Part shown: positions 6,212-33,943 of the stretch, one piece after another | Numbering within the stretch: the first letter of the stretch is position 1 | How the letters are laid out: each line of letters begins with the position of its first letter | From: Promethearchaeota archaeon | Lineage (GTDB): Archaea > Asgardarchaeota > Lokiarchaeia > Sigyniarchaeales > SOKP01 | DNA length: 37,413 bases | NCBI GenBank assembly: GCA_018238625.1 | Contig: JABCSY010000034.1 | Span: 1-37,413 of the forward strand | Direction of reading: 5' to 3' | The notes under the pieces: model-generated | Database searches by the model: none | Told to the model about the DNA's origin: nothing | Seen by the model: only the letters and a program-made list of their open reading frames with translations | Translations under genes and position numbers: made by a program

Positions 6212-7594
6212 TTAGCCTAAAAAATCTGCTTCGGTCGGTTTTTCGAGAATATCTAATAAGTTATTTTCTATAATCAATTGTAAAACGCCCTTAACTTGCA
6301 TACCATGATTATAGAGGTTATTCGCATCGTCTAAATTCCTCCAACAGAAGGGACATTCCGTTAGCAAGAAGTCTGCTCCTACCGCGTTAGCCTCATCGCA
6401 CCTTAAGCTAGCTGTTCTAATCGAGAAATCAGGATATCCTGCTCGAACTCCACCTCCAGCTCCACAGCACATAGAATTCATTCTTATTCGATACATTTCG
6501 TTAAACTTGAGTCCCACATCTTCTTCTAGCTTTTTAAGTATAACTCGCGGTTTATCGAACCATTCGTCAATCATTTTATTAACTTTTCTCATATCGAACA
6601 TAAGGTTCTTAGATTCTTTGATCATGTTCTGTTCCATATCAACCGCAAAATGCCTGCCTGTATGGCATGGGTCGTGGTAGGTAATTACTTTTCCCTTTAA
6701 TTCCTTGTTAGCTTTAAACTTTATCTTCTCTTTTTGAATAAGATCAGTTATTAATTCAAACGCGTGCAAGGTTTTAAAAGGAAGTTTCTCGTCTTCTGCC
6801 ATCCACTTTGGATAATCAATTGTTATCGTTCTGTAGCATCCAGCACACGAGAAATAAACCATTTCCAAATCCTTAAAATTTTCAAGATTCTTTCTCATTA
6901 ACTCTTGTGCTGTTTCTACTGCACCAATTCTAAAGAAAGGACTACCACAACACACTTCTTCTTCAATTAAAGTAAAATTAATACCTAATTTCTCGAAAAG
7001 TTTTGCGGTCGTTACAGCGACTTCTATTTGACGATAACTAGCAGTACAGCCTACGTAATACCCTACTTTTGCACCTTTATTATTAACGAACTTTCCTAAG
7101 CCCGCATCTTTAGCCCATTTGAATCGTTCCTCAGCTTTGCCACCGTATGGATTGTTCAATTCTTTGACCAATCTATCAACCAAAGCGTGCTTTTCGATCA
7201 TAGGTACTCCTGATTCTATTAACGCAGCCCGTAAAGATTCGATAATATCTACGGTAGGGATCTTATTTTCGCATTGGGCAGAACATTGACCACAAGTTAT
7301 GCAGGGCAAAATAACATCTCTTACTTCTTCAGAAAATTCTAAATCTCCGCTTAATATCGACCTAGCTATCCACATCTTGCCAGCGTTCCAAAAAGCTTCC
7401 CATCCATATTCTATTCCAGCTGGACACGAGTCAATCATACCTTCGTAAAGAACTGTACCTTGTTTTCCAGTGAATTCCCCTATTCCGTCTCTACTAGGCT
7501 CTCCCGAATAAGCAAACCTACACGCTTTACAGTGGATACACTTATATATTTCCTTCTCCAATTCTTTTAATCTTTCCATTCCAGTTTTAGCCAT
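6212..7594 (-). CDS. Fe-S oxidoreductase, HdrD/GlcF family (2x[4Fe-4S] plus two CCG domains)
   Basis: CIHCKAC...CP and CITCGQCSAQC; EVCCGSP, SCAGCYRT, YHDPCHTGR, MCCGAGGG, TECPFC. Confidence 0.92.
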   Translation of the reverse strand: MAKTGMERLKELEKEIYKCIHCKACRFAYSGEPSRDGIGEFTGKQGTVLYEGMIDSCPAGIEYGWEAFWNAGKMWIARSILSGDLEFSEEVRDVILPCITCGQCSAQCENKIPTVDIIESLRAALIESGVPMIEKHALVDRLVKELNNPYGGKAEERFKWAKDAGLGKFVNNKGAKVGYYVGCTASYRQIEVAVTTAKLFEKLGINFTLIEEEVCCGSPFFRIGAVETAQELMRKNLENFKDLEMVYFSCAGCYRTITIDYPKWMAEDEKLPFKTLHAFELITDLIQKEKIKFKANKELKGKVITYHDPCHTGRHFAVDMEQNMIKESKNLMFDMRKVNKMIDEWFDKPRVILKKLEEDVGLKFNEMYRIRMNSMCCGAGGGVRAGYPDFSIRTASLRCDEANAVGADFLLTECPFCWRNLDDANNLYNHGMQVKGVLQLIIENNLLDILEKPTEADFLG

Positions 7595-7616
7595 TTTTTT
7601 TTACCTCCTTGTTCAG

Positions 7617-9104
7617 TTATGGAAGAGCGAGCCTCCCAGGGTGCATTATCATATTAGGATCAAATATTTTCTTCATCGTTCTCAAATATTTCCAGTACAT
7701 TCCTGCTTGAGAATAAGTGAGAGGCGCGTGGATGTATGGGTCAGGTCTATAATTCAACCACCCTTGTTTAAGCGCGTATTCTGTTGTTTCTCTATTCATC
7801 TCTTGAACCTTTTCGATATCTGATTGTTTTGTGCTGTCGAAACAAATGATGGGCATACAAATTGCTTGCCTACAACGCTCAATACTAGCAATCCACATAA
7901 CTTCTGGGAACCCATATTTCTTCATAGCAGCACAATACATTTCAGCGAAATGGGCGCATTCGTTCCATGGTGTATAGAAAGTAATAAATAAAAATCCTGC
8001 CTCCCAAAACGCATACGGAACCGCAATCTTATTGGGTTTCTTCAATCTGCTTGCAATCTGTTTGGGATGTAGTTCCTGAGGTTTCATGCTATCAGGGTCT
8101 TTGGCTCTGTTTTTCTTGAAATCTTCAGCCATTTTATTGATTCTATTAACCACATAATCTAACTCTTCTTGAGTTTGTGCCCAGCACTCCCAATTCATCC
8201 ACCACTTACTAATTCCTAGTTGTTCGTAGAATTCGTAATCGTGAGGAACTTTATCCTTCGGCCAACGTGTCATCACCAAAGGGTAATTCCCACCTTGAAC
8301 CATAACTGTATTATGGGCAATTCCAAATTCTTGCTTTCCAATTTCAAGCGTTAGGTCCTGCATATCCTCAGGATTGGACATACCCCATACAACTACAGTC
8401 TTAAATTTTGGATGTGGGTATATTTTAACTGCGACTTTAGTCATTACGCCTAGAGTCCCTTGTGAACCCATTAAAAAGGACCAGATATCTGGACCTATTC
8501 CGTATTTATAGAACGGTTTCGCAAATGGAAGTGCCCAAGAGCCAGTTCGCACAATATCTCCGTTTGGAAACACAATCTCGCCACACATGAAGTTATCACC
8601 TTGTGGGCCAACGGAACTAGTGTAGAGGGAAAATCCTCGATCGATAGCATCGCCCATTACGGTAGAGGCTGGTGGGGCACCGTCTGGTACGGGAGGCGCC
8701 CATTCTGGGTAATTTTTGTGCATGTAACCCCAAAGCTCCCCAATCGTGACTCCTGGTTCGACTACGACGTAACGATTCTCTGTATCGACTTCGATAATTC
8801 TATTCATTCTACCTAAATCAAGCATAACTCCAGCAGGCTTAATGGTTGGACACGCAAAGCCGCCAGATAGTCCGCCTGAAACCGGTGAGACTGCAATTTT
8901 TTCTGCAGAGCAGTAAAGTAGAATTTTACGAATCTCTTCCACGTATTTAGGGCGTACGACGATATCCGGAATCTGGGCTTCTAATCCCATTACAGATTTG
9001 GAAAGATATGACGCTGTAATTGCCTTGTTATTGGTGGCGTACTCCTTGCCTACGATCCCTATCATGGCATCTAAATCTTTATCATCTGGTAATTTATAGC
9101 TCAT
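7617..9104 (-). CDS. FAD-binding oxidoreductase, VAO/PCMH (GlcD-like) family
   Basis: PDIVVRP, DLGRMNRIIEVD, VVEPGVT, GSQGTLGVMTK, KKIFDPNMIMHPG; adjacent to HdrD/GlcF partner. Confidence 0.92.
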   Translation of the reverse strand: MSYKLPDDKDLDAMIGIVGKEYATNNKAITASYLSKSVMGLEAQIPDIVVRPKYVEEIRKILLYCSAEKIAVSPVSGGLSGGFACPTIKPAGVMLDLGRMNRIIEVDTENRYVVVEPGVTIGELWGYMHKNYPEWAPPVPDGAPPASTVMGDAIDRGFSLYTSSVGPQGDNFMCGEIVFPNGDIVRTGSWALPFAKPFYKYGIGPDIWSFLMGSQGTLGVMTKVAVKIYPHPKFKTVVVWGMSNPEDMQDLTLEIGKQEFGIAHNTVMVQGGNYPLVMTRWPKDKVPHDYEFYEQLGISKWWMNWECWAQTQEELDYVVNRINKMAEDFKKNRAKDPDSMKPQELHPKQIASRLKKPNKIAVPYAFWEAGFLFITFYTPWNECAHFAEMYCAAMKKYGFPEVMWIASIERCRQAICMPIICFDSTKQSDIEKVQEMNRETTEYALKQGWLNYRPDPYIHAPLTYSQAGMYWKYLRTMKKIFDPNMIMHPGRLALP

Positions 9105-12094: not shown

Positions 12095-12904
12095 TCAATC
12101 TTTTTTTAAAAACCTTTTTGAAGAGAATCTTATGCCGAAAAACAAGAAAAACAAAGAGAAGATCAATGTTAACGGTAAATGTCCAATAACAATGTAGGCA
12201 AAAGCGGGTTCTGATGAGTAGGCAAATAATACAATTGTTACAACTAAATGAATGATAGAGTTCGCAATGGCAACTCTTCGATTTGGAGATAAAATACCAA
12301 AAAGAAAATTGGGAAATAAAAATAAAATCATAATATTTCCAGTTGATAGCAGAATCATAGCCGGAAAAAATCTTGTGAACAGCTCATCACCATATAGATA
12401 TTGAGTTAGGTTAAAAGCCTCAAAAAGAAAAAGAGTAGCATAAATACTGAGTAAAATTAAAGGGTACATAAGCGATCCGTTAATTAACCACGATATTACC
12501 ACTCTAATTATGGGTGTGCTTATAATTTTTCCTTTTAGATTGCTTTGAATGTTTTTTTCCATTTCTTCTTGAATGATTTTTTCTGTGTCGTAATCAGGTG
12601 AATAGGAATCGATAAATTCTTGTAAAATATTTTTCAAAATGTTAGAGACCAATTCGTTGTTATCGTTTGAACTCACGATCGCGGCTCCGAGTAACCGTTC
12701 GTCTTGTTTTGAGACGATGATAAGTTTATTGTTTTCCCCAAGATCAACGTTTTTAACTGCCGTACCTAAGGCTTCCCTACTAAAGTTAGTGATAGATGTG
12801 AAAAACCCTATTAATAAATTATCGTCGTACTTTTGTTCTCTCTCAAAAGATTTGGAATATAATAAAATTCCTTTATTATCCATGATATATAGATTTTTTA
12901 ACAT
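12095..12904 (-). CDS. Longin-like domain fused to about 4 transmembrane helices
   Basis: N-terminus LYIMDNKGILLYSKSF...DDNLLIGFFTSITNFSREALG...LKNILQEFIDSY fits the longin beta-beta-alpha-beta-beta-beta-alpha pattern; four hydrophobic segments follow. GAGGAGTG precedes ATG 12904. Confidence 0.72.
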   Translation of the reverse strand: MLKNLYIMDNKGILLYSKSFEREQKYDDNLLIGFFTSITNFSREALGTAVKNVDLGENNKLIIVSKQDERLLGAAIVSSNDNNELVSNILKNILQEFIDSYSPDYDTEKIIQEEMEKNIQSNLKGKIISTPIIRVVISWLINGSLMYPLILLSIYATLFLFEAFNLTQYLYGDELFTRFFPAMILLSTGNIMILFLFPNFLFGILSPNRRVAIANSIIHLVVTIVLFAYSSEPAFAYIVIGHLPLTLIFSLFFLFFGIRFSSKRFLKKD

Positions 12905-12943
12905 ACTCACTCCTCTTGTTTTGTCATAATTTAGTTTTAAATT

Positions 12944-14647
12944 TTATTTATTTTCAACAAATTCTAAATATTCTCCAATGGAGGCATTAGATTTTTTAAA
13001 ACATTGTAATTGTGGACCAAATAATTCTGTTATCCTTACAATTACGTTATTTGTATTCGATTTAAGAAAAATCTTATATTTTTCATTCTTTCTTTCTTCG
13101 ATTATTACTTCAATTTCTTCTATTTCTTCTAGTTTTCTAATTAAGAACTCTTCAGGATCGTTTAGTTCTATCGTTACAATCTCGCCATATTGAGGCAGTT
13201 CTTTAATATAATCCTTAAAAGATCCTATTTTTGATGCTGTTTTGGTGATCGTTAAAATTTGGTCGCAATTTGATGCGATCTCCTCAGATCCATGGAAAAT
13301 CATAATCACATGAAATTCTTGCTTAATTTTATCCATGTAATTGTTAAATTTTTCGTATTCTAATTTTCCTAAAATTCCATAAGGTATTGAAAACATTATA
13401 ATCGTTGGTGCTTGGATTAAAGCGCGTGCTATTGAGAAAAGCAGGTATTCTAAAGGTGTTAACTCTGAGAACTTCTTATTTTTCTTATTTAGCATCCCAG
13501 TTACTTCCAAAACATTTTTTAGGAACTGTTTTTTACGATTGAATTTGTAAATTGTATCCGAAACTAAATCTTCAATAATTTCATCTATACTTTGACCTAA
13601 TCCAGCATTTTTTAAAATTGCGTTGAATTCATTCTTTCTCCCTTTATATATCTTATTCAAGTTTATCTTGTATTGAATTGCTTTCTTTACCTTCATATTT
13701 GTTATTACTGAGTTGTAAGCAGGAGGTAAAAGAAAAATTTTCTCTTTTTCTTTTTTTGATAACGATTTTATGGGATTTCCGAAAATTTCTATTGACCCTG
13801 AAAAATCTAGTTGCGAGCCTGCTATGGTCTCAAACAGATTCAATAAGTCTAATCTATGATCCACATTATTTAAATACTCTTCGTCGTACATAATGCCAAT
13901 AGACTTTCCTCTATGAATCTTAAAAGAAAGATTATTAATTGCTTCTCCCACTGACACGTCATTAAGAATTAAATATTGAGAATTTTCTTTTAAAGGTTCG
14001 AGATTGGCCTGTTTTGAAATAATTTCACAGATTTTTTCAATTATTTCAAGAACATGCGGAGGATTTTCTATATCCCAGTTTCTTATAATCTCTTCTTGGT
14101 TAAACTTTTTTTCAGTAATAATCCTTGACAAAGATCTTGAAAATGAAAAGGAAGGTAAAATTGGGTATTTTTCAAATTTAATTTTTAATTTGGTAGCGAA
14201 ATTGGGATAAGAGATTCGAATCTCTCTATAGTATGGGTTATTTCTTATTTGATAATTTTCAAACTTATTATCAATTAGTTCAACCTCATAGTTCAAAATT
14301 TCTAAGCGTTTTTGAAATTCTTGCCTAAAGAGGCTCCTCATGCGCCGAATAATTTTCATTGGATTAATAAAACCATCTTTATCGAAGCTTGGATTAAATA
14401 TAATCTCACTGAAATCAATCTCATCTTCAATAGGAGTATAAATCTTTAATAATGGAGCTCCTTTCTCCAAGACATCGCTATTAGTAAAAAATAATATTTC
14501 AATAAACGACCTTTTATAAATTAAATCAATAATAGAAGCAATCCCAAAAGTATCTTCTCTATAAGTCATCCAAAAACGTTTAGAAAGCCGGATTGCGCCC
14601 AAGATTTTTAATCTTAATCGTTCTAATTCTATTTCTCTATTCTTCAA
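12944..14647 (-). CDS. UBC/RWD(UEV)-like domain(s) fused to a degenerate (inactive) ABC ATPase and C-terminal regulatory domain
   Basis: KIKFEKYPILPSF...IIRNWDIENPPHVLEIIEKI; ABC scaffold INNLSFKIHRGKSIGI, SIARALIQAPTII, FHGSEEIASNCDQI; Walker A, LSGGQ and DEP replaced. GAGGTG lies 7 nt before TTG 14647. Confidence 0.7.
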   Translation of the reverse strand: MKNREIELERLRLKILGAIRLSKRFWMTYREDTFGIASIIDLIYKRSFIEILFFTNSDVLEKGAPLLKIYTPIEDEIDFSEIIFNPSFDKDGFINPMKIIRRMRSLFRQEFQKRLEILNYEVELIDNKFENYQIRNNPYYREIRISYPNFATKLKIKFEKYPILPSFSFSRSLSRIITEKKFNQEEIIRNWDIENPPHVLEIIEKICEIISKQANLEPLKENSQYLILNDVSVGEAINNLSFKIHRGKSIGIMYDEEYLNNVDHRLDLLNLFETIAGSQLDFSGSIEIFGNPIKSLSKKEKEKIFLLPPAYNSVITNMKVKKAIQYKINLNKIYKGRKNEFNAILKNAGLGQSIDEIIEDLVSDTIYKFNRKKQFLKNVLEVTGMLNKKNKKFSELTPLEYLLFSIARALIQAPTIIMFSIPYGILGKLEYEKFNNYMDKIKQEFHVIMIFHGSEEIASNCDQILTITKTASKIGSFKDYIKELPQYGEIVTIELNDPEEFLIRKLEEIEEIEVIIEERKNEKYKIFLKSNTNNVIVRITELFGPQLQCFKKSNASIGEYLEFVENK

Positions 14648-17600
14648 TTTTAGGCACCTCAATTAATTTGTATCTGAAGAATTGTTCCATTTTAGAATCG
14701 ATTTGCTTTATTTCTTGGATGGAATCTTTACCAATTTCACTTTCGATTTTTTCAATTAGTTCTTTTACGTTTAATTCTGTAAATAACGAATAATCAGTTC
14801 CCGCTTTATTTTCAAGAACGTTTTCTATGCCATCTATAGATTCGAGCGTTTCAATTACGTTTTCTTTTAGCTCGGTAAAACATACTTCTACAGAGCGTCC
14901 TTTTCCTGGTAATTGGGCTAATAGATATTTTGGTTTCCCGAAGTCTATAACACCGCGATTTCTGCCGAAAATAGCAACACGATGGCAGAAGCGTGATTCT
15001 TCGGGGTAATGAGTTATTACAATTAGAGTAGTTCCAAATTGCTCGTTGATTTTTGTAAGGGCTAGCCATAAATTTTCGCGTATGATAGGATCTAATCCTG
15101 AAGTAGGTTCGTCTAAAATAAGAAAGATTGGGGAGTGAATTAGCCCGATTGCAATGCTTACCCTTCTTTTTTGACCCCCCGAAAGGTTTCTCACGAATTC
15201 ATCCATTTTATCTTCAATTTCAAGATTACGCAAAAGTCTCCTAGATCTACTTATTATTTCTTGTTCCGTTAACCCATATTGATTTCCAAAATACAATAAG
15301 TTTTCAAAAACAGTAAAATTATGATAGATTTTCCCTAGATCTTGGGGTACATAGCCATATATGGGTCTAATCTTTTTAGAATTTTTTTTATTAATGTTCA
15401 TTCCATAAATTTTACAAAACCCCGTAATTTTTCTCATTCCCAGCAACCCTTTTACAAAAGTTGACTTTCCTGCCCCACTTTCCCCTAAGATTCCTAATAT
15501 TTGACCATGTTCTATTTTCATTGACACAGAGTCAACAATCAATCTTCCTCCAGCATATACGCTAAAATTTTCGCAATCGATTGCTGGAAATCTTTGTAAA
15601 TAGGATTGTGTAATTCTTCCACCAAGACCTAATTTTTCTTTAATTCTTTTCAATAACGCGAGTCTTTTGCGAATTTTTAAAAATATAAATAGACCAATAA
15701 ACCCAGCTTCAGTAAGTAAGATATAAATTAATAATTGGTTCCAAGGTTTTGAATCAAAACTCTGGTCATATTTTAATTCGTCTATAATTATAATTCCATA
15801 GGGCGAATTTCGTAAATCAGCTCCAAAATCAGGGGTATCCCCTATTCCTCCCGTATTGGTGCTTATACATCCCGAAAACCAGACTAAAGCTTCTTGAATG
15901 TTATCAGGTTGAAAGTTGTAGTCGTAAAGCGCCTTAGAAGCGAGATAGGTCACTAAAAAAGATGAAGGTAAATCTAAAAATACCCCCATCATGGGTAGAA
16001 GGGAAAAACTTCCATCGGAAGTTTGCGAAAGCTTTAAAAAATCAATTGCGGTCATTTTAGACATTGGACCGTTAACAAAACCCTCGTAAAAGATTTGCAA
16101 ACCGTAATATGTAGAAATAACGTCGCTATGAAATCCCATAACGATTGAAAATCCTCCATCAGCGTTTTGGCACGACCTTACCCAATGAGAAAGATTATTA
16201 TAATGAATCCGATCTAACCCATTAATTAATTTTAGAGAAATTAAAGCCCAATATGTACTTTCTACAGTGGAAACATTTGTATTGATTAAATTAGTAAAAA
16301 TCATAGAATAAGACCCAAAAAGAGATAATAAATAATCGATATCGTTTCCAACTCTGAAACCTCCATCAGGATTTTGCAAGTTAGATAAGAAGTTTTTTGT
16401 CAAATTTAAGGTATTTGGAAGAAACCAAGGTTGATTTGCGGGATTATTTGCGGGATTAAGCATTTGAAATAGTTTTAATCCACAATACGTAGCAAAAAGA
16501 GTTGCTTCTTGACCTGGTTGCGAACCAAACCCTCCATCGTGAATATTATAACATGTATTTGTAAAATATAAGATATTGTTTTTTATGTATTGAAATTGCG
16601 CGGTCTGTATTGAATCGAGATACCCCATGCTAAAATAAGTTAAAATTCCAAAATAATTAGTTTCAATTGTTATTTGCCCAAATAGAGCGTTTTTTGCTTG
16701 GAAAAAGTGTAGCCATTCATAGTAATTAATTTTAATTTGTTTTATAGCCTCAATTACTTCTTGAGTAAGAATTAACTGACTTTCTAAAATTCTAATTGAT
16801 TTCATTGCCGCCCAACCAGATGTGAAATCAGATTTAGTTACATTTGGATGAAAACCAAATCCTCCATCATTATTTGAACAATTCAAGATAAATTCTAAAG
16901 TTTTAGAGGCATTTATTAAAGGAAGCTCTAATAAATCTAGCGAAGAAATAGCGTAATAAGTTGATTGGACATCAGTAATACCTGCTAAAATGTTACTATA
17001 GCCACCATCGAATGGGTTATGCAATGAGTTAAAATAAGCTCCAATGGCTATTACTTCACCTAAATTATAAGACATATTCATTCCTAGAAAAGCTCTTACA
17101 CCATAGAAGGTCGTTTCTGGATTTGAAACTAAAGAGTTATTTGTTATTCGATAACTACCTCCAAACCATGTAGAATTAATAAATTCTTCAATATTTTGAT
17201 TAAGAAGTAAAGAACTCTCTGATAAACTATATGCGAGTTCAATCGCACAGAATGTAGAAATAATGTCAGAATCGTTTAAAAATGGCATAATCTTAAATCC
17301 CCATCCGCCTCCGTTTAAAGATTTTACTAAATAGTTAGCAATATTATTCGTTTCTCCTAGATTTATCTTGCGTTCAAGATACGATTTATTGGTTATTTCT
17401 AAAGTTTCGATTGCTTCATAGGTTGAAAACATATTTCCAAATTCTGCTATATCTGAATAAGACCCATCCACATTTTGTTTTTCAAAGATATAATCAAAAA
17501 AGAAATTGCGGAAAAAAGCTTCAATGTTTAGATTATTATTAGGATTTATTAATTCAGGAGCATTAATATTTGAAAATGTGAAATTAATAGAATCGATAGC

Positions 17601-17828
17601 TCTAAAATTTGAATCAATATCGGGTTCTATAAACAATCCTACATCGTTATGGTGAGTGCTTGTAAAAGAAGTTGCCATATTTTTAATTTGTTCTGCATTT
17701 TTTTCGTCAATATAATAAGTCCAATGAACATTTACTAAAACCAAAGTTGTAATTGGAGTTCCGATAAGAATACAGACTATAATAAAATTTTTTAGTCTTT
17801 TTTCGTTTTTCCGACTTAATTTTAAGAT
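14637..17828 (-). CDS. Fusion: signal anchor, extracellular prenyltransferase/squalene-cyclase repeat domain, TM helix, intact ABC ATPase
   Basis: About 9 repeats such as KQNVDGSY, CSNNDGGFG, LQNPDGGFR, CQNADGGFS, SQTSDGSFS; TM LLIYILLTEAGFIGLFIFL; GESGAGKS, YVPQD, LSGGQ, LILDEPT, ITHY. The frame is open upstream of TTG 17744 and encodes RKNEKRLKNFIIVCILIGTPITTL; start uncertain. Confidence 0.85.
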   Translation of the reverse strand: MLKLSRKNEKRLKNFIIVCILIGTPITTLVLVNVHWTYYIDEKNAEQIKNMATSFTSTHHNDVGLFIEPDIDSNFRAIDSINFTFSNINAPELINPNNNLNIEAFFRNFFFDYIFEKQNVDGSYSDIAEFGNMFSTYEAIETLEITNKSYLERKINLGETNNIANYLVKSLNGGGWGFKIMPFLNDSDIISTFCAIELAYSLSESSLLLNQNIEEFINSTWFGGSYRITNNSLVSNPETTFYGVRAFLGMNMSYNLGEVIAIGAYFNSLHNPFDGGYSNILAGITDVQSTYYAISSLDLLELPLINASKTLEFILNCSNNDGGFGFHPNVTKSDFTSGWAAMKSIRILESQLILTQEVIEAIKQIKINYYEWLHFFQAKNALFGQITIETNYFGILTYFSMGYLDSIQTAQFQYIKNNILYFTNTCYNIHDGGFGSQPGQEATLFATYCGLKLFQMLNPANNPANQPWFLPNTLNLTKNFLSNLQNPDGGFRVGNDIDYLLSLFGSYSMIFTNLINTNVSTVESTYWALISLKLINGLDRIHYNNLSHWVRSCQNADGGFSIVMGFHSDVISTYYGLQIFYEGFVNGPMSKMTAIDFLKLSQTSDGSFSLLPMMGVFLDLPSSFLVTYLASKALYDYNFQPDNIQEALVWFSGCISTNTGGIGDTPDFGADLRNSPYGIIIIDELKYDQSFDSKPWNQLLIYILLTEAGFIGLFIFLKIRKRLALLKRIKEKLGLGGRITQSYLQRFPAIDCENFSVYAGGRLIVDSVSMKIEHGQILGILGESGAGKSTFVKGLLGMRKITGFCKIYGMNINKKNSKKIRPIYGYVPQDLGKIYHNFTVFENLLYFGNQYGLTEQEIISRSRRLLRNLEIEDKMDEFVRNLSGGQKRRVSIAIGLIHSPIFLILDEPTSGLDPIIRENLWLALTKINEQFGTTLIVITHYPEESRFCHRVAIFGRNRGVIDFGKPKYLLAQLPGKGRSVEVCFTELKENVIETLESIDGIENVLENKAGTDYSLFTELNVKELIEKIESEIGKDSIQEIKQIDSKMEQFFRYKLIEVPKIEE

Positions 17829-18859
17829 ATAATTCCACCTTCACTATTTATTTCAGAAATATTTACTTCATTTTCTTTTTCTTCTTCCTCTTGGATTCTG
17901 ATCTGAAAGAGTCTTCTAAAATTGGCAATATCCCTACTCATTGAATAAATTTTAACATCATTTTCAAATAAGTATTTCATTAATTTAGGCAAGTTATTCT
18001 CAAAATTTTCCATTAATACTTCGATAGTTTCATTTCCAACGCGTAATACATTTTTGACCGAATCAAATTTTTGAACCGTTTTTATTACTTTTTGATCTAA
18101 ATTTTCGATTGAAATTCTCGCTACTAAACCCCCACTGGGCAGAGAAGATATTAACTTTCGAGGCGTGTCAAATTCGAGTAATTTCCCCTGCCTTAATATC
18201 GCAGTTTTATCACATATTAGTGCCGCTTCTAAATCGTGTGTAATAATAAACATGGTTGTGCCTAAATGCTGGTTTAGCTTCTTTAGATAACTGAGTATAT
18301 CATAACGTTTCGACGCATCCACACCAGTCGTGGGTTCGTCAAGAAAGAGAACTTTTGGGTTGTGGATTAAACCAATAGCCATTGAAAGACGCTTCTTTTC
18401 GCCCCCGCTCATCCGAGATACCCTTTTTTTCCAAGTATCCTCGGGAATGTCTAATATTTTAAACAGCTTTTCAGCGGTTTTTTTTGCCTTCTTTTTGTTC
18501 ATTCCATAAGTAGATGTAAAAACCTCGACATTTGACATAGGATTTAATTCAAAATATAAATTCAATAGTTCTAGTTGAGGAACGTATCCAATATTACTTA
18601 GAATTTTTGAATGATTTCTTTTTTTCCTAGGATTTAAACCCGTAACTTCTACATTTCCGCTCCAATTTTTCTTTTCAATTTGGCATGTTAGTACCCTAAT
18701 AATTGTTGTTTTTCCAGCGCCTGAAATTCCAAACATACCAATGATTTCGCCTTGGTCCACATTAAAAGATACATCATGTACAATTTGGTTTTTCCCAAAT
18801 GTGACATTTAAGTTTTCCACGAGTACCATTGAATTATCAGAAGGATTAGAAATCTCCAT
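17822..18859 (-). CDS. ABC-2 type transporter ATP-binding protein (DrrA/CcmA-like)
   Basis: GISGAGKTT, YVPQ, MSGGEKKR, LFLDEPT, ITHD; GAGGTG precedes ATG 18859. Confidence 0.95.
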   Translation of the reverse strand: MEISNPSDNSMVLVENLNVTFGKNQIVHDVSFNVDQGEIIGMFGISGAGKTTIIRVLTCQIEKKNWSGNVEVTGLNPRKKRNHSKILSNIGYVPQLELLNLYFELNPMSNVEVFTSTYGMNKKKAKKTAEKLFKILDIPEDTWKKRVSRMSGGEKKRLSMAIGLIHNPKVLFLDEPTTGVDASKRYDILSYLKKLNQHLGTTMFIITHDLEAALICDKTAILRQGKLLEFDTPRKLISSLPSGGLVARISIENLDQKVIKTVQKFDSVKNVLRVGNETIEVLMENFENNLPKLMKYLFENDVKIYSMSRDIANFRRLFQIRIQEEEEKENEVNISEINSEGGIIS

Positions 18860-18860
18860 T

Positions 18861-20093
18861 TTACACCTCATATTTCCTTCTTTGAAATATTATAAAGGAT
18901 GCAATTACAAGAAAAACGCTAACGCCTAATAAAGTAAAAAAGTCAAAACCAAATATTGATTTTCCCTTAGTAATTATTCCTGTTATTAACGGACTTCCAT
19001 GCGATAAAGGAAGCGCATATGCCATTATTTGTAAGTAAATCGGCATGGCATCAATAGGAATAAATATTCCACTTAGAAGAAGTAAAACTAGAAAAGTAGC
19101 ATAAAATAATTGATTTGCTTGAGTTTTAGTTTTGCTTAATGTGCTAATAAAAATACCCATAGCAAGGCCGGTAAATCCTAAAATAAATAATGCGAGGAAT
19201 AAATCGAACACTGACCCTACTACATATAACCCAAATACTAAAGCACTAATAACAAGTGAAAGATCTTGAATAATCACAATGCTTATATAAGTGATATATT
19301 TTGCAGATAGAATCTCAGCCCTTTGAACGGGAGTAAGCAATAATCTCGCAATTTGATTTTCTTGAACTATTGTTAAAATTGTTGAGACCATCCCAACTCC
19401 TATAACCATAAAAGAGAGAAGAAGTACCATGGCATAATTAAATCTAAAGTTATAGCCTTCAGGAATTGAAAATTCTTCAAAACCACTAACTTCAAATTGA
19501 GGGGTCAAATTATTTTGGTTAACAAAAATTTTAATAGAATCGTAAACAGCATTTAAATTTTCTTGAATTTTTAAAAAATCTGATGAATCTGATATACATT
19601 CTATTAAACCCGGATACCCAAAGATTAACAATTCAGAAAAGTCAACTGGAATTGCGATAATAACCTTAATTTTCTTTGAATTTAAATAATTTCTAGCCGT
19701 TTCCATCGCATAAATCTCTTCAGAAGCGTTAAAAAATTGTATAAGGTTTAATAAATTCGAACTGTTTACAGCCTCAACATAATTTATACTGTAATCATCT
19801 ATTTTTGTTTCCGTAAAATTATTTTCGTTAATATATGTGTTAGAATCATAGGAAATTACAACGCAATCTATAGGGTTGGAAGTAGTACTTCCAATGTTAG
19901 TGGTTACTCCTAATAAAGCAACTACAAGAGGAGGTATAATTAGTGCTATAAAAATATTGAATTTGTCAGTCCATAAAAGTTGAAATTCTTTCTTAGTTTG
20001 TCTAAGTAATCGAATTATACTTTTTTTAAAATTTAGTATTTTCGATCTAACTTCTTTAGACGATTTATCGTTGATTTGGTTGCTCCGTTTAAT
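18861..20093 (-). CDS. ABC-2 type permease (about 410 aa; N-terminus extends well beyond the ORF-track call)
   Basis: The frame is open from 20096 to ATG 19706 and encodes TKKEFQLLWTDKFNIFIALIIPPLVVALLG, matching IKKEFGRIKSDKRTLILLFAIP of the upstream permease; RLLLTPV, LSGIFIPIDAMP, LPLSHG. Confidence 0.85.
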   Translation of the reverse strand: MKRSNQINDKSSKEVRSKILNFKKSIIRLLRQTKKEFQLLWTDKFNIFIALIIPPLVVALLGVTTNIGSTTSNPIDCVVISYDSNTYINENNFTETKIDDYSINYVEAVNSSNLLNLIQFFNASEEIYAMETARNYLNSKKIKVIIAIPVDFSELLIFGYPGLIECISDSSDFLKIQENLNAVYDSIKIFVNQNNLTPQFEVSGFEEFSIPEGYNFRFNYAMVLLLSFMVIGVGMVSTILTIVQENQIARLLLTPVQRAEILSAKYITYISIVIIQDLSLVISALVFGLYVVGSVFDLFLALFILGFTGLAMGIFISTLSKTKTQANQLFYATFLVLLLLSGIFIPIDAMPIYLQIMAYALPLSHGSPLITGIITKGKSIFGFDFFTLLGVSVFLVIASFIIFQRRKYEV

Positions 20094-20096
20094 TCT

Positions 20097-21248
20097 TCAC
20101 ACCTCCACTTTTTTAAACTTATATGCGATATAAGCACTTAATAGAAAAACAAATGAAATTAAAAGAAGAGATAATGTGTGTTCTAAATTTAACGATAAAC
20201 CCCTTAAAGTTATATCCGTTATGAGGACTGAAGCGTGGCTTAAAGGAAGCATATCTGAAAGAAATCGCGCACTCCCCAAAGATTCAGGTGGTAAAACAGT
20301 TCCTGAAAAAATTATGATAATTATAAATAGCATCATGTACATTTGATTAGCTCCTTGTTCTGTTGGGCTAATTGCAGAGATAAATAAACCAATAGTTATC
20401 CCGCTAAAACCAATCATTAATAGAACTAGGTAAAAATTAAATAACGAGCCTAAACTATATAAACCAAAAAATGATGTCAATACGAATATTTCTGTAGCTT
20501 GCAATATCATTATTATAGCGTTTGCAATTAGTTTGCTAAGGATTACATCTCTTTTTTCAGTAGGCGTAATAAGCATTCGCGGAAGTGGAGCCTCAGAAAC
20601 AATTGTTAAAGATGTTAAATTCATCGTAGTTCCAATTATCATCATTGGTAAAACCAGAGCCAATGTGTAGTTGAGCAATTGAGATTCCCACGAAGGTACT
20701 CCAAATTCAAGGTGAGGGACCATTATTGTAAAATTTTCCAGCATATTAATTTCAACGCGAAAAAGAGCGAGAGGTTCTTGGAGAGCTACCTCAATTGCAC
20801 CAACAGCCATTAGATCAGATCCATCAATATAATAGATTAATATAGGATTAATTTTATTTGCTACAGATTCTGAGAAATTTTGAGGGAGCACAATAAAAAC
20901 ATCTATTACTTCATTTTTTAATAAATTAAAACATCGATCAAATGCTTCGTTATATTCTCCACTATTAGTACTATTATAGTATCGGTAAAGATCCCATGTT
21001 GTGGTATTTTGTTCCATTATCGAGATAAAAATATCATCGTATTGAGAAGAATTTGACGGGAAATTATCGTAAGTGGGCATTTCATCGAGAGTTATAATCG
21101 CAGAGGTAAAGAATTTTATAGGGCCAACACCCGTAGTAAGCCCAAAAATGACAATTAATATTATTGGTATTGCAAATAACAGAATTAAAGTTCTTTTATC
21201 AGATTTAATTCTACCAAATTCTTTTTTTATTAATCCGCCTATGTTCAT
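20097..21248 (-). CDS. ABC-2 type permease
   Basis: N-terminal TM, extracellular loop, further TMs; RMLITPT...ILSKL, FSGTVLPP, LPLSHA. Confidence 0.92.
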   Translation of the reverse strand: MNIGGLIKKEFGRIKSDKRTLILLFAIPIILIVIFGLTTGVGPIKFFTSAIITLDEMPTYDNFPSNSSQYDDIFISIMEQNTTTWDLYRYYNSTNSGEYNEAFDRCFNLLKNEVIDVFIVLPQNFSESVANKINPILIYYIDGSDLMAVGAIEVALQEPLALFRVEINMLENFTIMVPHLEFGVPSWESQLLNYTLALVLPMMIIGTTMNLTSLTIVSEAPLPRMLITPTEKRDVILSKLIANAIIMILQATEIFVLTSFFGLYSLGSLFNFYLVLLMIGFSGITIGLFISAISPTEQGANQMYMMLFIIIIIFSGTVLPPESLGSARFLSDMLPLSHASVLITDITLRGLSLNLEHTLSLLLISFVFLLSAYIAYKFKKVEV

Positions 21249-21344: not shown

Positions 21345-21908
21345 TTACTGCATAGTTTTGTCAACTGTTTGAAAAAATTTATGATCCGAAACTGGTGTTA
21401 ATTCATTCATTTTCAAAAGAGACCTTCTTTTTTTGTCTTTAACAATAAATTTTTGAAATATTTCATTGTTATCGCTAATAAATTCCCAAAATTCTTCGTA
21501 AATATCTTGTAATGTTCTATGATTTTTTCTATTATAGCTCTCTTCGATTTTTTTTGTTTCTTTTTTAGTATCTGGCATTTTTGGCATGTTTTTGATAGAA
21601 TTTTCCTTTGATACTGAAGATTTGTATAGTTTTAAACTATTTACAAAACTTTCTTCGTAATTATGTCTTAGATTTTTCTTCTTTTTGTCATTCTCTAATT
21701 GAAAATCAACTTTTTGATATCCCCGTATTTTAAAATTTTTGTCTATAAATAATTGGAAGTGATGTTGACAAATTTCACCTTTAGGTACAGAGACGGTTGT
21801 TAGTTGAGAAGCTTGGTTAATTACGGACTTAGGAATCCGTACCGTGTTCTGTGCTTTACACACAGGACAAATAACTTGAACATATCTATTAACTGTTATA
21901 GCTTCCAT
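21345..21908 (-). CDS. Hypothetical Zn-binding protein of a Lokiarchaeia-type family
   Basis: CPVC...ICQHHFQLFIDKNFKIRGYQKVDF motif, recalled as common in lokiarchaeal proteomes. Confidence 0.7.
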   Translation of the reverse strand: MEAITVNRYVQVICPVCKAQNTVRIPKSVINQASQLTTVSVPKGEICQHHFQLFIDKNFKIRGYQKVDFQLENDKKKKNLRHNYEESFVNSLKLYKSSVSKENSIKNMPKMPDTKKETKKIEESYNRKNHRTLQDIYEEFWEFISDNNEIFQKFIVKDKKRRSLLKMNELTPVSDHKFFQTVDKTMQ

Positions 21909-25772: not shown

Positions 25773-27290
25773 TTGTCAGAATTGTTTCAAAAATTAGAAA
25801 ATATAGTCAAGGAGAAATATATCTCGAACAGCCTTTACGTAAGACACGCCTATTCGAGGAACGTAGACCCCGTATTGCAAGGAGTCCCCGACATCGTAAT
25901 TAGACCGAAAGATGCAAAAGAAATCTCTGAGATTTTAAAAGTTGCAAACGAGGAAAATGTCCCCGTTACTCCTCGTGGCGGTGGTGATTGTGAATTTGGC
26001 GGTAGTAAACCAATAGGAGATGGCGGCATTGTCTTGGATTTAAAACGTATGAACAATATAGTTAATTTAGATCAAGAAAATCTTATTGTTACAGTCGAAG
26101 CAGGAATCTCTTGGGCAAAATTAAACGAATACTTGTGTCATTTTGGATTATACACTGGATGTTTGGGCCCAGGCTCCGGGCTGACCGCGTCAGTAGGAGG
26201 GGGTATTTCGCATCAATCGGTAGGAGGTGGTGGAGGCGCAAAATACGGTTCGTGCACAAATCAATTAGTTTCTTTAGAAGTAGTTTTACCAACAGGCGAA
26301 ATTATTGAAACTGGCTCTCAAGCAAATAAGTTTTCAAAGTTTCCGTTTAATAGATTTGGAAACGGACCAGATTTAGCAAGCCTTTTTTGCGGCGATAACG
26401 GCATTCTTGGCGTGAAAACCCAAGCATCATTACAAATTTTTCCAAAACCTCCATTTGCGGATTATAAAACATTTCTCATGCCTCGAAAATCTGAAGAAAT
26501 ATCAGCAAAAATTTTTACAGAATTTAGGCTTAAAGGGATTGATGTTTACGATTCGATGTATTTTATGGATCTATTAGTAAGAGTGGGCACAGAAAAAGGA
26601 ATTTTTCCTTTATGGGAGAATTTAAAGAGAAAAAGGGGTACAATGTTTTACACAGTAGAAGCTAACTCAGAAAAAGAACTTGAAGAGAAAGTTAAACAGT
26701 TAGACAAGATTTTTCTACAAAATAAAGCAGAAGAATTAGGTCCTGAAATTGCAGATGGTAATATTGGGAAATGGCATTACGAGGAACAAGGGCACTGGCT
26801 AATTGCCCATAATTTATGGGGTTTAGTTCCTGGTTTCACAGCCTTAGACGCAGAATGCCACACGCCAATTACCGCATATCCAAAAATTTTGAAAGATGTT
26901 GAACTATGGGATATTGAACACTCCAAAGAAATGGAGCAGATTTTAGCGATTACGGGGATGCGGCCGATTTCCGGGGCAGGACCAATAATATTGATTGGAG
27001 ATCAGAATGTTGAACTAACTACTGGATTTACGAGCTTCGAAAGCTACATTGATGGGAAAAATTATGAAATTATTAAAGAGCTTAACCTAAAACTCTGGAA
27101 ATCTTTACTCGAAAGAATAACTAAACACGGAGTAACATGGTACATGCTAGGAGATATTCTAAGTAGACTATTGGTTGAAATTGGAGCGTTTCAGCCAGAG
27201 TACTTACAATTCTTGAAATCAATTAAAAAAACACTTGATCCGCGATTTATTTTAAGCAGAGGAAAATTTAATTTTTGGGGAGCAAAATAA
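25773..27290 (+). CDS. FAD-binding oxidoreductase (GlcD-like), paralog 1
   Basis: PDIVIRP, TPRGGG, LDLKRMN, VEAGISW, GDNGILGVKT, KKTLDPRFILSRGK. Confidence 0.92.
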   Translation: MSELFQKLENIVKEKYISNSLYVRHAYSRNVDPVLQGVPDIVIRPKDAKEISEILKVANEENVPVTPRGGGDCEFGGSKPIGDGGIVLDLKRMNNIVNLDQENLIVTVEAGISWAKLNEYLCHFGLYTGCLGPGSGLTASVGGGISHQSVGGGGGAKYGSCTNQLVSLEVVLPTGEIIETGSQANKFSKFPFNRFGNGPDLASLFCGDNGILGVKTQASLQIFPKPPFADYKTFLMPRKSEEISAKIFTEFRLKGIDVYDSMYFMDLLVRVGTEKGIFPLWENLKRKRGTMFYTVEANSEKELEEKVKQLDKIFLQNKAEELGPEIADGNIGKWHYEEQGHWLIAHNLWGLVPGFTALDAECHTPITAYPKILKDVELWDIEHSKEMEQILAITGMRPISGAGPIILIGDQNVELTTGFTSFESYIDGKNYEIIKELNLKLWKSLLERITKHGVTWYMLGDILSRLLVEIGAFQPEYLQFLKSIKKTLDPRFILSRGKFNFWGAK

Positions 27291-27323
27291 AAGCAAATAT
27301 CATTAGAAAAAGAAGTAAAAAAA

Positions 27324-27638
27324 ATGTTTAGTAAAAGGACTTATCTTGAAAATAACGAGGGAAATACAGTTAAAGTAAAAGGGAGAATTTCTGAAGTAAT
27401 CTGGCAACATATGACTGCTCTTATTAATTCTCATCCACACATGAATTATTTCGACTTAGCTGATAGTTATCAAATTATAGTTTATACTAAGGACCAGATT
27501 TCTTGTAAAGGTCAGATCGAAATAACTGGGAAAGTTACGAAGTTAGAGAGTGATTACAATAATCCTGAAGCTAAAATTAGCGATAAATTTGCTGAATATC
27601 ATATAATTGCAGATTCTTGGAAATGTATTGAAGAATAA
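27324..27638 (+). CDS. Small hypothetical protein, probable OB fold
   Basis: EGNTVKVKGRIS...IEITGKV...YHIIADSWKC beta-strand pattern. Confidence 0.6.
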   Translation: MFSKRTYLENNEGNTVKVKGRISEVIWQHMTALINSHPHMNYFDLADSYQIIVYTKDQISCKGQIEITGKVTKLESDYNNPEAKISDKFAEYHIIADSWKCIEE

Positions 27639-27737
27639 TTAAAAAATGAGAAAGTTTGAAAATAAAATAAAGATTTAAGTAATTTATAGAGTCTATTATA
27701 AAATGTTTTTATTAAATTGTCAAGAGGTTTAAGAAAA

Positions 27738-29252
27738 TTGTCTGAAGTATATAAAAAATTAGAAAATATAGTCAAGGAGAAATTCATCTCTAATAGCATT
27801 TATGTAAGGCACGCGTATTCAAGAAATGTAGATCCCGTTTTACAAGGCGTACCTGACATAGTAATTAGACCGAAAGATGCTCAAGAGATTGCAGAAATTC
27901 TTAAAATTGCAAACATTGAAAATATCCCCGTCACACCTCGTGGAGGTGGTGATTGTGAATTCGGTGGAAGTAAACCCATAGGGGATGGTGGAATAGTATT
28001 AGATATGAAAAGAATGAACGAGATTATCAATTTAGACCAAGAAAATCTTATCGTAACCGTTGAAGCTGGAATTTCTTGGGGAAAATTAAACGAATACTTG
28101 TGTCATTATGGGCTTTATACGGGTTGTATGGGGCCGGGTTCTGGAATGACTGCGGCGATTGGAGGCGGAATATCTCATCATTCAGTAGGTGGAGGGGGAT
28201 GTGCAAAATATGGCGCTTGTACTAATCAATTGGTTTCGTTGGAGGTAGTACTTCCGACGGGCGATATCATAGAAACGGGTTCTCAGGCTAACAAGTACTC
28301 CAAATTTCCTTTCAATCGATTTGGTAATGGTCCTGATTTAGCCGGTCTTTTTTGTGGTGATAATGGAATTTTTGGCGTGAAAACTAAAGTTTCGTTGCAA
28401 ATATTTCCAAGACCACCGTTCGCAGCATATAAAACGTTTCAATTGCCTCGAAAGGAAAGGCAAGTTTCGGCAAAAATAATGACTGAAATTAGGCAAAAGG
28501 GAATTGATGTTTACGATGTTATGTATATAATGGACCTTATTGTTAGAATAGGTTGTGAACGTGGAATGTTTCCGTTTTGGGAAAACTTGAAAAAAAAGAG
28601 AGGTATAATCTTTTATACGATCGAAGCAAATTCGGAAAATGAATTAGAGGAGAAAGTAAAACAATTAAACGAAATAATGTTAAATAATAAGACAGAAGAA
28701 CTGGGTCCAGAAATTTCCGAAGGGAACATGGCTAAATGGCATTATACCGAACAAGGTCATTGGCAATTCTATCATAACTTATGGGGGATGTCTCCCTGTA
28801 TGGAACCATTAACAGCAGAATGCTTTAGTTCGATCAATTCATATCCTCCAATTTTAAACGATATCGACCAATGGGACATGGAACATAGTGAAGATATGCA
28901 AAAAATTTTAAATATTACAAAAAGTCGTCCGATTGCAGGGAGTGGGCCAATTGTTTTAGTTGATGGAAATAACGTAGAAATAACATGTGGTTTTACTAGT
29001 TTTGGAAGTTATTTCGAAGGAGAAAACCATGAAATTCTCAAGGAGTTAAATTTAAAGCTCTGGAAATCGCTATTAGAAAGAGTGACAAAAAGCGGGGTTC
29101 AGTGGTATATGATGGGAGATTTTATGTCTCGTCTAATGGTCGATATTGGAGCTTACACGCCTGAGTATTATAATTTTATGAAATCAATAAAAAATGTTCT
29201 TGACCCTAAATCAATAATAAGTAGAGGAAAATTTAATTTTTGGGGGGATTGA
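27738..29252 (+). CDS. FAD-binding oxidoreductase (GlcD-like), paralog 2
   Basis: Colinear and highly similar to 25773..27290; start TTG 27738 chosen by alignment with the paralog and an upstream GAGGT. Confidence 0.92.
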   Translation: MSEVYKKLENIVKEKFISNSIYVRHAYSRNVDPVLQGVPDIVIRPKDAQEIAEILKIANIENIPVTPRGGGDCEFGGSKPIGDGGIVLDMKRMNEIINLDQENLIVTVEAGISWGKLNEYLCHYGLYTGCMGPGSGMTAAIGGGISHHSVGGGGCAKYGACTNQLVSLEVVLPTGDIIETGSQANKYSKFPFNRFGNGPDLAGLFCGDNGIFGVKTKVSLQIFPRPPFAAYKTFQLPRKERQVSAKIMTEIRQKGIDVYDVMYIMDLIVRIGCERGMFPFWENLKKKRGIIFYTIEANSENELEEKVKQLNEIMLNNKTEELGPEISEGNMAKWHYTEQGHWQFYHNLWGMSPCMEPLTAECFSSINSYPPILNDIDQWDMEHSEDMQKILNITKSRPIAGSGPIVLVDGNNVEITCGFTSFGSYFEGENHEILKELNLKLWKSLLERVTKSGVQWYMMGDFMSRLMVDIGAYTPEYYNFMKSIKNVLDPKSIISRGKFNFWGD

Positions 29253-29256
29253 AAAA

Positions 29257-33019: not shown

Positions 33020-33943
33020 ATGCCAGTTGGAATATATCTCTACGAAATAGACGAATCTTTTGGACCAAATGTATTAGCAGAATATTATTTGGCTCAAGAA
33101 AATAAAATTGATCCCGAAATTTTAAAAGATTTCGAAGAAAAACACATCCAAAACAAATTTTTGGATACAATATGTTGGAGAGAAGATTTAAGGTTTTATT
33201 CGTCAAAAATAAGAGCAGAATCTATTGAAAGAGACAATCTCTTCTTAGGTTTTGTCTTTAAAAATGATGAAGACTTAGTTTCTTTGAAGAGTATACTCGA
33301 TAACATCGCTACTAAAGTTGTTGAAGAATTTTCAAAGGACAAAGGAAAATTAGAAGCGTTGTTCAAAAAAGAATTTGACTCCATTTTCACTTTAATGGAA
33401 AAGTTAAAAGAACCGACTCTGATTAAAGAAACCATCAATGATAAAACCAAAAAAATGCTTGACGACGGAAAGTTGCAAGAAGCTAGAGAATTAATAGATT
33501 TAGGTGAAGATATCCCTGAGAAGATGTCAGAGGAAATCAAACTTGCTGAGCAATTATTAAACGATAAATTTTATAAAAGGGCTAGAAAAAGCTTCCTTAA
33601 AGCTGCTGAATTAGCCGAAATTATCCAGGAAAACGATGTAGTCTTGTTTTTGACAAGCAAAGCTGACCAAATAGTAAAATTTCCCGAATTAATTAAAGAT
33701 CGCGAAAATATACACAGAGAAATGGAAAAAAAAATTGAGGCGTTCCAACATAATAAGCTTCATCTATATCACGAGTTAATAAGACCTATAGATACTTTAA
33801 TAAATATTTCAAATTCCTTTGAGGATCAAGAATTAACAATAAGTTTAACTGAATTACTAAAGAGTTTCAAAAGAGCAGACCAATTAGCAAAGGAATTGTT
33901 TATTTTAGATACAAAAATCAAAGAACATTTCGAAAAACTTTAA
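33020..33943 (+). CDS. Hypothetical protein: uDENN/longin-like N-terminal domain plus helical bundle
   Basis: GIYLYEIDESFGPNVLAEYY resembles the FDxxxGP start of uDENN-type longins; helical C-terminus with a TPR/MIT-like segment AEQLLNDKFYKRARKSFLKAAELA. Confidence 0.6.
   Translation: MPVGIYLYEIDESFGPNVLAEYYLAQENKIDPEILKDFEEKHIQNKFLDTICWREDLRFYSSKIRAESIERDNLFLGFVFKNDEDLVSLKSILDNIATKVVEEFSKDKGKLEALFKKEFDSIFTLMEKLKEPTLIKETINDKTKKMLDDGKLQEARELIDLGEDIPEKMSEEIKLAEQLLNDKFYKRARKSFLKAAELAEIIQENDVVLFLTSKADQIVKFPELIKDRENIHREMEKKIEAFQHNKLHLYHELIRPIDTLINISNSFEDQELTISLTELLKSFKRADQLAKELFILDTKIKEHFEKL

Follow-up and report, generated by a model that had tools for sequence, protein, structure and literature searches.

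A putative ABC-2 exporter operon of Lokiarchaeia with a double prenyltransferase-type barrel, a UBC-like pseudo-ATPase, a longin protein and a predicted polymorphic intron in an ATPase gene of relatives

What might an ATP-binding cassette (ABC) exporter of an Asgard archaeon do with a prenyltransferase-type barrel, ubiquitin-conjugating (UBC)-like modules and a longin domain, and do these parts form one system? The question is raised by a stretch of 37,413 nucleotides (nt) from a Promethearchaeota archaeon (assembly GCA_018238625.1, contig JABCSY010000034.1), which was analysed in full and is called the window hereafter; the genome that carries it measures 4.29 Mb and belongs to the Lokiarchaeia (hereafter the class). 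Six genes, numbered G1 to G6 in the order of their transcription, lie there on the minus strand. Judged from its sequence, this operon is a real and previously undescribed variant of ABC-2 exporter. We found no description of the operon, or of the intron that relatives carry in G3, in the literature, where supplementary gene-family tables of Asgard surveys and bioRxiv supplements could list either; Asgard ABC-2 systems are treated only in general terms in the accessible part of PMC7997004. Longin and UBC-like folds have been known in Asgard archaea mostly without genetic context, and the presence of both beside a transporter makes their ancestral roles testable. The operon comprises the following features:

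20097..21248, minus strand: G1, ABC-2 permease of 383 residues with an outer loop of ~150 residues after the first transmembrane (TM) helix (Pfam ABC2_membrane_3, E 2.9e-21; hydropathy)
18861..20093, minus strand: G2, second ABC-2 permease, ~410 residues (Pfam ABC2_membrane_3, E 8.8e-22)
17822..18859, minus strand: G3, intact DrrA-type ATPase with a C-terminal regulatory domain, 345 residues (all motifs present)
14637..17828, minus strand: G4, 1063 residues, with an N-terminal anchor, an ectodomain of ~660 residues, a TM helix and an intact ATPase with regulatory domain (Pfam Prenyltrans and ABC_tran; start ATC inferred)
15741..17720, minus strand: ectodomain of G4, two predicted prenyltransferase-beta-type alpha/alpha barrels, apparently nested, without zinc site or DxDD
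14009..14647, minus strand: N-terminal tandem UBC-like (RWD/UEV/BRE-like) modules of G5, non-catalytic (profile hits, HHalign, model)
12944..14008, minus strand: dead ABC ATPase fold of G5 and regulatory domain with a conserved ERxNE(K/R)Y motif
12095..12904, minus strand: G6, 269 residues, with a longin domain (residues 1-122; profile) and four predicted TM helices (hydropathy)

The original prediction, made from the letters of the DNA, had described six co-oriented genes with short junctions, beginning with a permease, a second permease, an active ATPase and an ectodomain-TM-active ATPase protein. Six minus-strand open reading frames (ORFs) indeed fill 12095-21248 in this order, and Pfam matches, motifs and hydropathy agree with the four assignments. 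In agreement with the claimed overlaps or gaps of about 40 bp or less, G1 and G2 lie 3 nt apart, G2 and G3 1 nt and G5 and G6 39 nt, while G3 overlaps G4 by 7 nt and G4 overlaps G5 by 11 nt. Each of the six genes has one copy in the genome. Starts were placed at 21248 (ATG, G1), 20093 (ATT, inferred, G2), 18859 (ATG, G3), 17828 (ATC, inferred, G4), 14647 (TTG, G5) and 12904 (ATG, G6). The Shine-Dalgarno (SD)-like motifs already noted in the original prediction precede five of the six starts (all except G1; background 0.025 per position), and this evidence is independent for G3, G5 and G6 only, as the starts of G2 and G4 were picked with the SD in view. Neither of these two genes has a standard start codon, and both starts were placed by the SD; at the 5' end of G2 there is no ATG, GTG or TTG nearby, and its start is set at the ATT behind GGAGGTG. 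By a crude count, ATG is missing from the 30 codons ahead of the first TM helix in 52 of 61 G4-orthologous ORFs, and in the G4 family ATA, ATT, ATC or TTG comes after the SD. G4 and often G2 apparently begin, family-wide, at ATA, ATT or ATC behind a strong SD (17828 and 20093 in the window), and a low stoichiometry may be set in this way. Readthrough from G1 into G2 was considered and rejected, since a frame shared across the TGA is peculiar to few loci and most orthologues differ.

The permeases G1 and G2 share 30% identity and both pass the Pfam cut-offs of PF12698, PF01061 and PF12679. By strict patterns, the Walker A, Q-loop, signature, Walker B and H-loop motifs are kept, per motif, in 51-61 of 61 G3 orthologues and in 48-60 of 61 G4 orthologues. 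The best NCBIfam family of both ATPases is drrA (TIGR01188), and neither can be assigned to the DrrA subfamily, as both stay under its curated cut-off of 312 bits (194 bits for G3 and 158 for G4). DrrAB, RbbA-YhhJ/YbhFSR, NodIJ and Thermotoga TM_1403 resemble the operon in having two ABC2_membrane permeases and in the C-terminal regulatory domain of their ATPases. Unlike DrrA-type exporters, however, the operon lies below all curated cut-offs and has an ATPase-TM-660-residue ectodomain fusion, a third, dead ATPase with UBC-like modules and a longin-TM subunit. The proposed kinship with eukaryotic ABCA/ABCG transporters amounts to the general relation of DrrA-type ATPases. ABCA1/3/4/7 are the top PDB sequence matches for G3, a ranking that is inflated because ABCA scores sum two ATPase domains, and they resemble the operon proteins in the outer loop after the first TM helix and in the regulatory domains, whereas their membrane and ATPase domains lie in one chain instead of separate genes.

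Conservation of gene order, which the original prediction had put forward as a check across Asgard genomes, was observed within the class, to which the operon is restricted. With G4 as the query, 94 of 151 class genomes match at 1e-60, 13 of them through a paralogue ATPase only, and outside the class the full G4 ectodomain was detected in 1 of 223 genomes of a phylum sample. Among 53 loci from 53 genomes, selected by having a G4 match, the order 1-2-3-4-5-6 is complete in 32. Twelve are partial (contig or locus ends cut; one apparently with G4 and G5 in a single ORF), four consist of G3-G6 with the permeases not nearby, three are rearranged with G5 inverted and no G6, one has 3-4-5 without G6, and the last is the locus outside the class, with genes 1-5. 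The class also contains sister ABC-2 operons, which combine a short ATPase, a long ATPase and a giant subtilase-GIFT protein; one type of these operons lies beside a Rab-like GTPase. In a quick tree of Asgard sequences only, G3 falls with the short ATPases, G4 with the long ATPases and G5 in a separate long-branched clade; the G3 and G4 trees (FastTree) are congruent. Because of the grouping with the short and long ATPases of the sister systems, the operon is, on sequence grounds, one member of a family characterized by a second ATPase with an add-on and by an attached outer domain.

Barrel, UBC-like and longin parts

Hydropathy places the TM helices of G4 at residues 12-36 and 697-719, which would put residues 37-696 outside and the ATPase inside. 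The TM helix before the ATPase had been foreseen, as had the prenyltransferase-beta-like fold of the ectodomain, which the present analyses support; an N-terminal anchor has to be added to this architecture, and the ectodomain resolves into two barrels with about 11-12 repeats across them. The closest matches of the structural model (predicted local distance difference test, pLDDT, 90.7) are prenyltransferase beta chains. Considering that one beta chain spans the model range 9-653 with 285 aligned residues, we read one barrel as nested within the other. Type II terpene cyclases likewise have one barrel nested in another. The fold and repeats are common to G4 and the beta subunits of GGTase-I, RabGGTase/GGTase-III and FTase (PF00432), but G4 is doubled, membrane-tethered and predicted outside, has no zinc ligands and is accompanied by no alpha subunit in the operon. 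The D-x-C...H zinc pattern is present in 1 of 37 sequences, and the equivalent positions are without Cys and His, RabGGTase DVCYSWW and DPFHT reading TVESTYW and SDVISTYY in G4; any occurrence of the DxDD cyclase motif is likewise confined to 1 of 37 sequences. Conserved residues of the ectodomain are D664, D671, R673, N674 and E523, which could line a pocket. A non-catalytic outer barrel of this kind would bear on the origin of protein prenyltransferases.

For G5, both halves of the original prediction, a dead ATPase and a UBC/RWD-like part, were recovered, the second in refined form as two modules of which the first is degenerate. Walker A is present in none of 41 orthologues, and residues 222-567 match an ABC ATPase fold with a regulatory domain in the fold search. 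The protein has no Pfam match at 0.01. A profile of residues 1-215 matched 123 proteins among 1.84 billion, and the 93 that were scanned included 18 with RWD or UQ_con, three with longin, two with JAB and three with RING. The profile of module 2 matches repeat proteins that Pfam assigns to RWD/UQ_con/BRE, the matched stretches being tandem repeats of module 2, and Pfam RWD is found directly in 2 of 21 members (best E 6e-4). Module 1 appears to be a degenerate copy, with an HHalign P of 0.00095 over 90 columns against the repeat family and scores of 10-19 bits in 4 of 33 orthologues; direct comparison of module 1 with module 2 gave no significance. The G5 model shows the helix-meander-helix pattern twice, and P162 and W191 are invariant in the UBC-like part. 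No conserved Cys that might serve as an E2 catalytic cysteine was detected inside the modules in 21 sequences, a far-end column having Cys in 8 of the 21. A PDB sequence search for RWD returned spurious matches only, and in the fold search with the full G5 model the ATPase part dominates the matches, no RWD structure being among them and residues 1-220 being barely sampled. BRE clusters appeared in the Atlas at 0.75-0.78 for the G5 modules, which is a lead only.

RWD domains are non-catalytic UBC folds, and one Asgard RWD-like sequence is noted in the accessible part of Tromer et al. (PMC6601020). As described there for RWD, UEV, BRE and FANCL, G5 has a beta-meander between helices, no catalytic cysteine and a tandem layout, and it carries a YPxxP variant of the RWD-type YPxxxP motif. 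Unlike in these proteins, the modules are fused to a dead ABC ATPase, a type of fusion that is unmentioned in the accessible parts of PMC6601020 and PMC10936438. The Asgard-type UBC-like repeat family (P0153-P0248; L129 and L130) has up to four repeats, fused also to longin, JAB or RING, and two members in the genome.

The longin domain claimed for G6 is supported by profile homology. G6 has no Pfam match at 0.01 and no PDB sequence match, and direct longin matches in Pfam are weak (E 0.04-0.2 in 4 of 25 G6 sequences). The N-terminal profile matched 20 other proteins of the genome; among the 11 scanned, seven have longin-clan Pfam families and one is a longin fused to a small GTPase. HHalign gave 98.3% to a profile built from seven matches of the same query, a value that is partly circular.

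Possible functions of the complex

Sequence and models together show that the operon encodes two different predicted membrane halves that have outer loops, two intact ATPases, barrels between two TM helices, a pseudo-ATPase and a membrane longin. Of these proteins, G1, G2, G3 and G4 would form a working, heterotetrameric type V (ABC-2) export pump that carries a hydrophobic isoprenoid cargo outward, the likeliest candidates being a membrane lipid of the archaeol type and a surface unit linked to a lipid. The prenyltransferase pocket holds geranylgeranyl chains, and the G4 barrels might re-use it as a tethered, non-enzymatic acceptor. G5 may dock on the ATPases and regulate them as a pseudo-ATPase, and together with G6 it may link the pump to partners in the cytoplasm through protein-protein binding, not through ubiquitin chemistry.

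An isoprenoid-lipid exporter with a tethered outer acceptor is the reading that we prefer, tentatively and with a confidence that falls a little short of even. Several points weigh against it. N-glycosylation sequons of G4 are in excess in both parts (2.27 per 100 residues vs 1.41 expected in the ectodomain and 1.07 vs 0.53 in the cytosolic part), so they do not prove the topology. The barrel fold was also found by fold search in sugar-binding and complement-like proteins, and it occurs in other, unrelated surface proteins of Asgard archaea, next to genes for transglutaminase and ATP-grasp proteins. In the sister systems the barrel is replaced by the subtilase-GIFT protein, which fits protein handling equally with lipid export. 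The locus outside the class has genes 1-5 with a dead ATPase that lacks the UBC-like part, and G6 is non-adjacent in five deep-branching loci, G6-like longin-TM genes sitting elsewhere, as several paralogues, in four of these five genomes. This last observation also touches the link to ubiquitin and small GTPases that the original prediction had drawn: the UBC-like modules lack a conserved cysteine, and no GTPase or ubiquitin gene lies inside the window's operon, leaving indirect support from domain fusions and one sister operon. A complex prediction for G5 and G6 scored 0.00 and was used neither for nor against any reading.

Alternatively, the ABC-2 core might use ATP to move or mature a partner protein on the outside, rather than pump small cargo; the G4 barrels would then bind a glycan or glycoprotein of the surface, and G5 and G6 would relay the state inside. 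NosDFY and GldAFG are ATP-driven ABC-2 machines that act on an outer partner protein in this manner. We consider this rather unlikely, although it deserves attention, because the outer loop of the permeases is typical of lipid-type ABC-2 pumps, the barrel is nearest to isoprenoid-binding proteins, and many other ATPases match the structure as well as NosF does. An ordinary multidrug/peptide ABC-2 exporter, to which G5 and G6 would be loosely attached neighbours with eukaryote-like folds as common building blocks of these genomes, appears improbable to us. The drrA family as the best NCBIfam match of G3 and G4, the abundance of longin in the genome (the 20 other matches) and some deep loci without G6 or the UBC-like modules would fit such a pump, but G5 stays adjacent in the three rearranged loci where it is inverted, G4 and G5 overlap or abut in most loci, and the 660-residue ectodomain is retained at at least 27% identity across orders. 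Catalysis by the G4 ectodomain, which would then act on the exported substrate at the cell surface as an isoprenoid cyclase, hydrolase or transferase with a non-canonical site, is just as doubtful, given that DxDD and D-x-C...H each occur in a single one of the 37 sequences and that the RabGGTase-equivalent positions are replaced.

A probable mini-intron in G3 of relatives

In several relatives G3 is apparently split by a short insert, the site of which is empty in the intronless allele of the window:

18326..18327, minus strand: empty intron site in G3, in the second Thr codon of DEPTT-GVD, where relatives carry a 31-34-nt bulge-helix-bulge (BHB) insert

The insert lies between Walker B and the D-loop and was detected, at this single G3 site, in 12 genomes and 8 metagenome contigs; the pattern scan recovered 11 of 161 class genomes, the twelfth genome came from fetched loci, and the metagenome pattern covered GAA-Glu alleles only. 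The carriers belong to six genera of one family and make up roughly one in seven of about 80 operon-bearing genomes. All 25 locus rows (12 genomes, 8 contigs and 5 duplicates) fold into an outer helix, a 4-bp helix, two 3-nt bulges on opposite strands and an inner hairpin. If each bulge is cut behind its second base, the DEPTTGVDA frame is restored in 25 of 25 rows, and the unspliced frame reaches a stop after 3-7 further codons, the 33-nt insert included. Among 16 distinct sequences, 97.2% of cells are paired with 31 two-sided changes, and none of 500 shuffles was as high, a control that is inflated by relatedness and that concerns a structure derived from the same sequences. The intron also tracks synonymous exon positions (UA/AU/GU and CG/UA/UG pairs). 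The central helix has 4/4 pairs in 22 rows and 3/4 in three, and these broken pairs speak against a BHB motif. Taken together, it is very probable that about one in seven operons has a BHB intron in its G3 message, which the tRNA-splicing endonuclease would have to remove. The accessible part of 10.64898/2026.10.13.758758 reports EndA for 58 of 60 Asgard genomes. Annotation divides the intron-bearing G3 into pseudogene halves.

The BHB intron of cbf5 pre-mRNA in Crenarchaeota, as far as the accessible parts of PMC2738675 and PMC7714728 describe it, is likewise short, lineage-specific and located in a protein-coding gene. The predicted G3 intron, whose splicing is deduced from sequence, differs in its Asgard host, in its place in a transporter ATPase, in the number of changes on the tree, and in the upstream HNH gene and insertion scars. 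At least 10 intron changes are needed on a G4 tree of 61 genomes, a set enriched for intron carriers. G3 is separated from G2 (by 52 nt to kilobases, or on another contig) in all 11 scorable intron alleles vs 4 of 45 intronless ones, with p 0.008-0.016 for independent pairs, the 40-nt separation threshold having been chosen after the data were seen and five genomes being unscored. A double-HNH gene lies directly 5' of G3, intact in one genome and as a remnant in another; two metagenome contigs have it at their edge, and one of these two has the same intron as the remnant genome. The protein (L105:9064-11355) has two HH...C-x-x-CH motifs and a PHROG HNH match (E 3.8e-14; Pfam HNH not significant), and a third genome has its closest homologue (54% identity) on the same contig as the operon, about 16 kb upstream. 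In three genomes G2 is followed by truncated 5' pieces of the resident G3, and the remaining intron loci have other cargo or short gaps.

The HNH neighbour and the truncated G3 scars suggest collaborative homing in which the nuclease later decayed, and we lean, by a modest degree, towards the view that the intron has undergone repeated spread or replacement along with a free-standing HNH element that inserts between G2 and G3. An ancestral intron with repeated loss would be the rival explanation. Intron sequences roughly follow host genera, which is also compatible with old inheritance and many losses, and an HNH gene within 2.6 kb upstream is missing in 9 of the 11 intron-bearing genomes that have upstream DNA; both observations count against homing. 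For phages, the accessible part of PMC2988022 describes collaborative or intronless homing, in which the gene of a free-standing nuclease and the intron are hundreds of bases apart and the intron interrupts a coding motif of high conservation. The phage intron is a self-splicing group I intron, whereas in G3 a protein-spliced BHB mini-intron is predicted in a cellular genome. With a nuclease nearby and insertion scars, a polymorphic intron in an mRNA provides a concrete, assayable way for introns to spread among the prokaryotes most closely related to eukaryotes. A still wider proposal, which we regard as speculative and unlikely, is that the complex is an archaeal lipid exporter prefiguring two eukaryotic layers, which would deliver isoprenoid lipid to the tethered prenyltransferase-like acceptor and be controlled by an RWD pseudo-ATPase and a GTPase-reading membrane longin. 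In addition, an active mobile system would spread, by means of the HNH nuclease, a protein-spliced mini-intron into the most conserved motif of the motor gene's mRNA, so that pump output would become EndA-dependent.

Intron-bearing G3 loci, some with an upstream double-HNH gene or truncated G3 scars, include L101:2387-5640, L105:8375-11355, L092, L096, L163 and L088. The 1.5-kb flanks of 28 other loci of the HNH family contained no convincing intron, and the two known introns were recovered. The cargo genes of L091/L094, L107, L085 and L103 had been suspected to be nucleases and gave no nuclease match. No RNA run was found to cover an intron-bearing locus, the one true RNA run examined giving no match there. 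A splice-like joint in two probably-DNA runs has synonymous changes of its own and was attributed to an intronless relative, not to splicing. A BHB scan of the whole genome gave 1897 loose and 694 filtered candidates, of which the top 60 and 45 that were viewed are AT-rich noise or lie in intact genes; the scan had no shuffle control, so absence of further introns is not shown.

Neighbouring and related genes

Several loci related to the operon vary in composition. At L112 (G149:C87), G4 lies within a 1509-residue open frame and is apparently fused to G5, for which a deletion or an assembly error is possible. One genus (L043:5934-7953, L079:7733-9377 and L080:11159-12845) has a membrane protein and a small protein that looks like a longin by eye, on the opposite strand between G4 and G5. 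In the sister operons L051-L070 (e.g., L051:4823-15592 and L052:1762-9991), the giant subtilase is combined with GIFT/ABC_transp_aux and two proteins match the MBTPS1 fourth domain, as in site-1 protease, and the long ATPase has winged-helix repeats (PCI/UFL1-like matches) or an unannotated N-terminal module. A third ABC-2 type (L064:6736-15059, L066 and L063) adjoins a Rab-like GTPase and coiled-coil proteins, with a WD40 protein in L066 as well. Other Asgard classes (L072:3084-10885 and L074:3206-10874) have a prenyltransferase-barrel protein, a barrel plus 7TM plus ATP-grasp protein and a transglutaminase in a row.

Within the window, a 187-residue Cys/His zinc-binding-like gene without a Pfam match (21345-21908, minus strand) precedes the operon, and in several family members it is found upstream or downstream of it. 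A protein of more than 1424 residues that runs off the contig (3-4274, minus strand) consists of an N-terminal prenyltransferase-like barrel, a long coiled coil and a PCI domain. An ATPase with a weak BrxC/D match (33980-35803, minus strand) converges on an unannotated 307-residue protein (33020-33943, plus strand). Positions 6212-9104 and 25773-30489 hold three FAD-linked oxidase genes and two CCG/4Fe-4S partners, which resemble lactate/glycolate dehydrogenases and appear to be ordinary.

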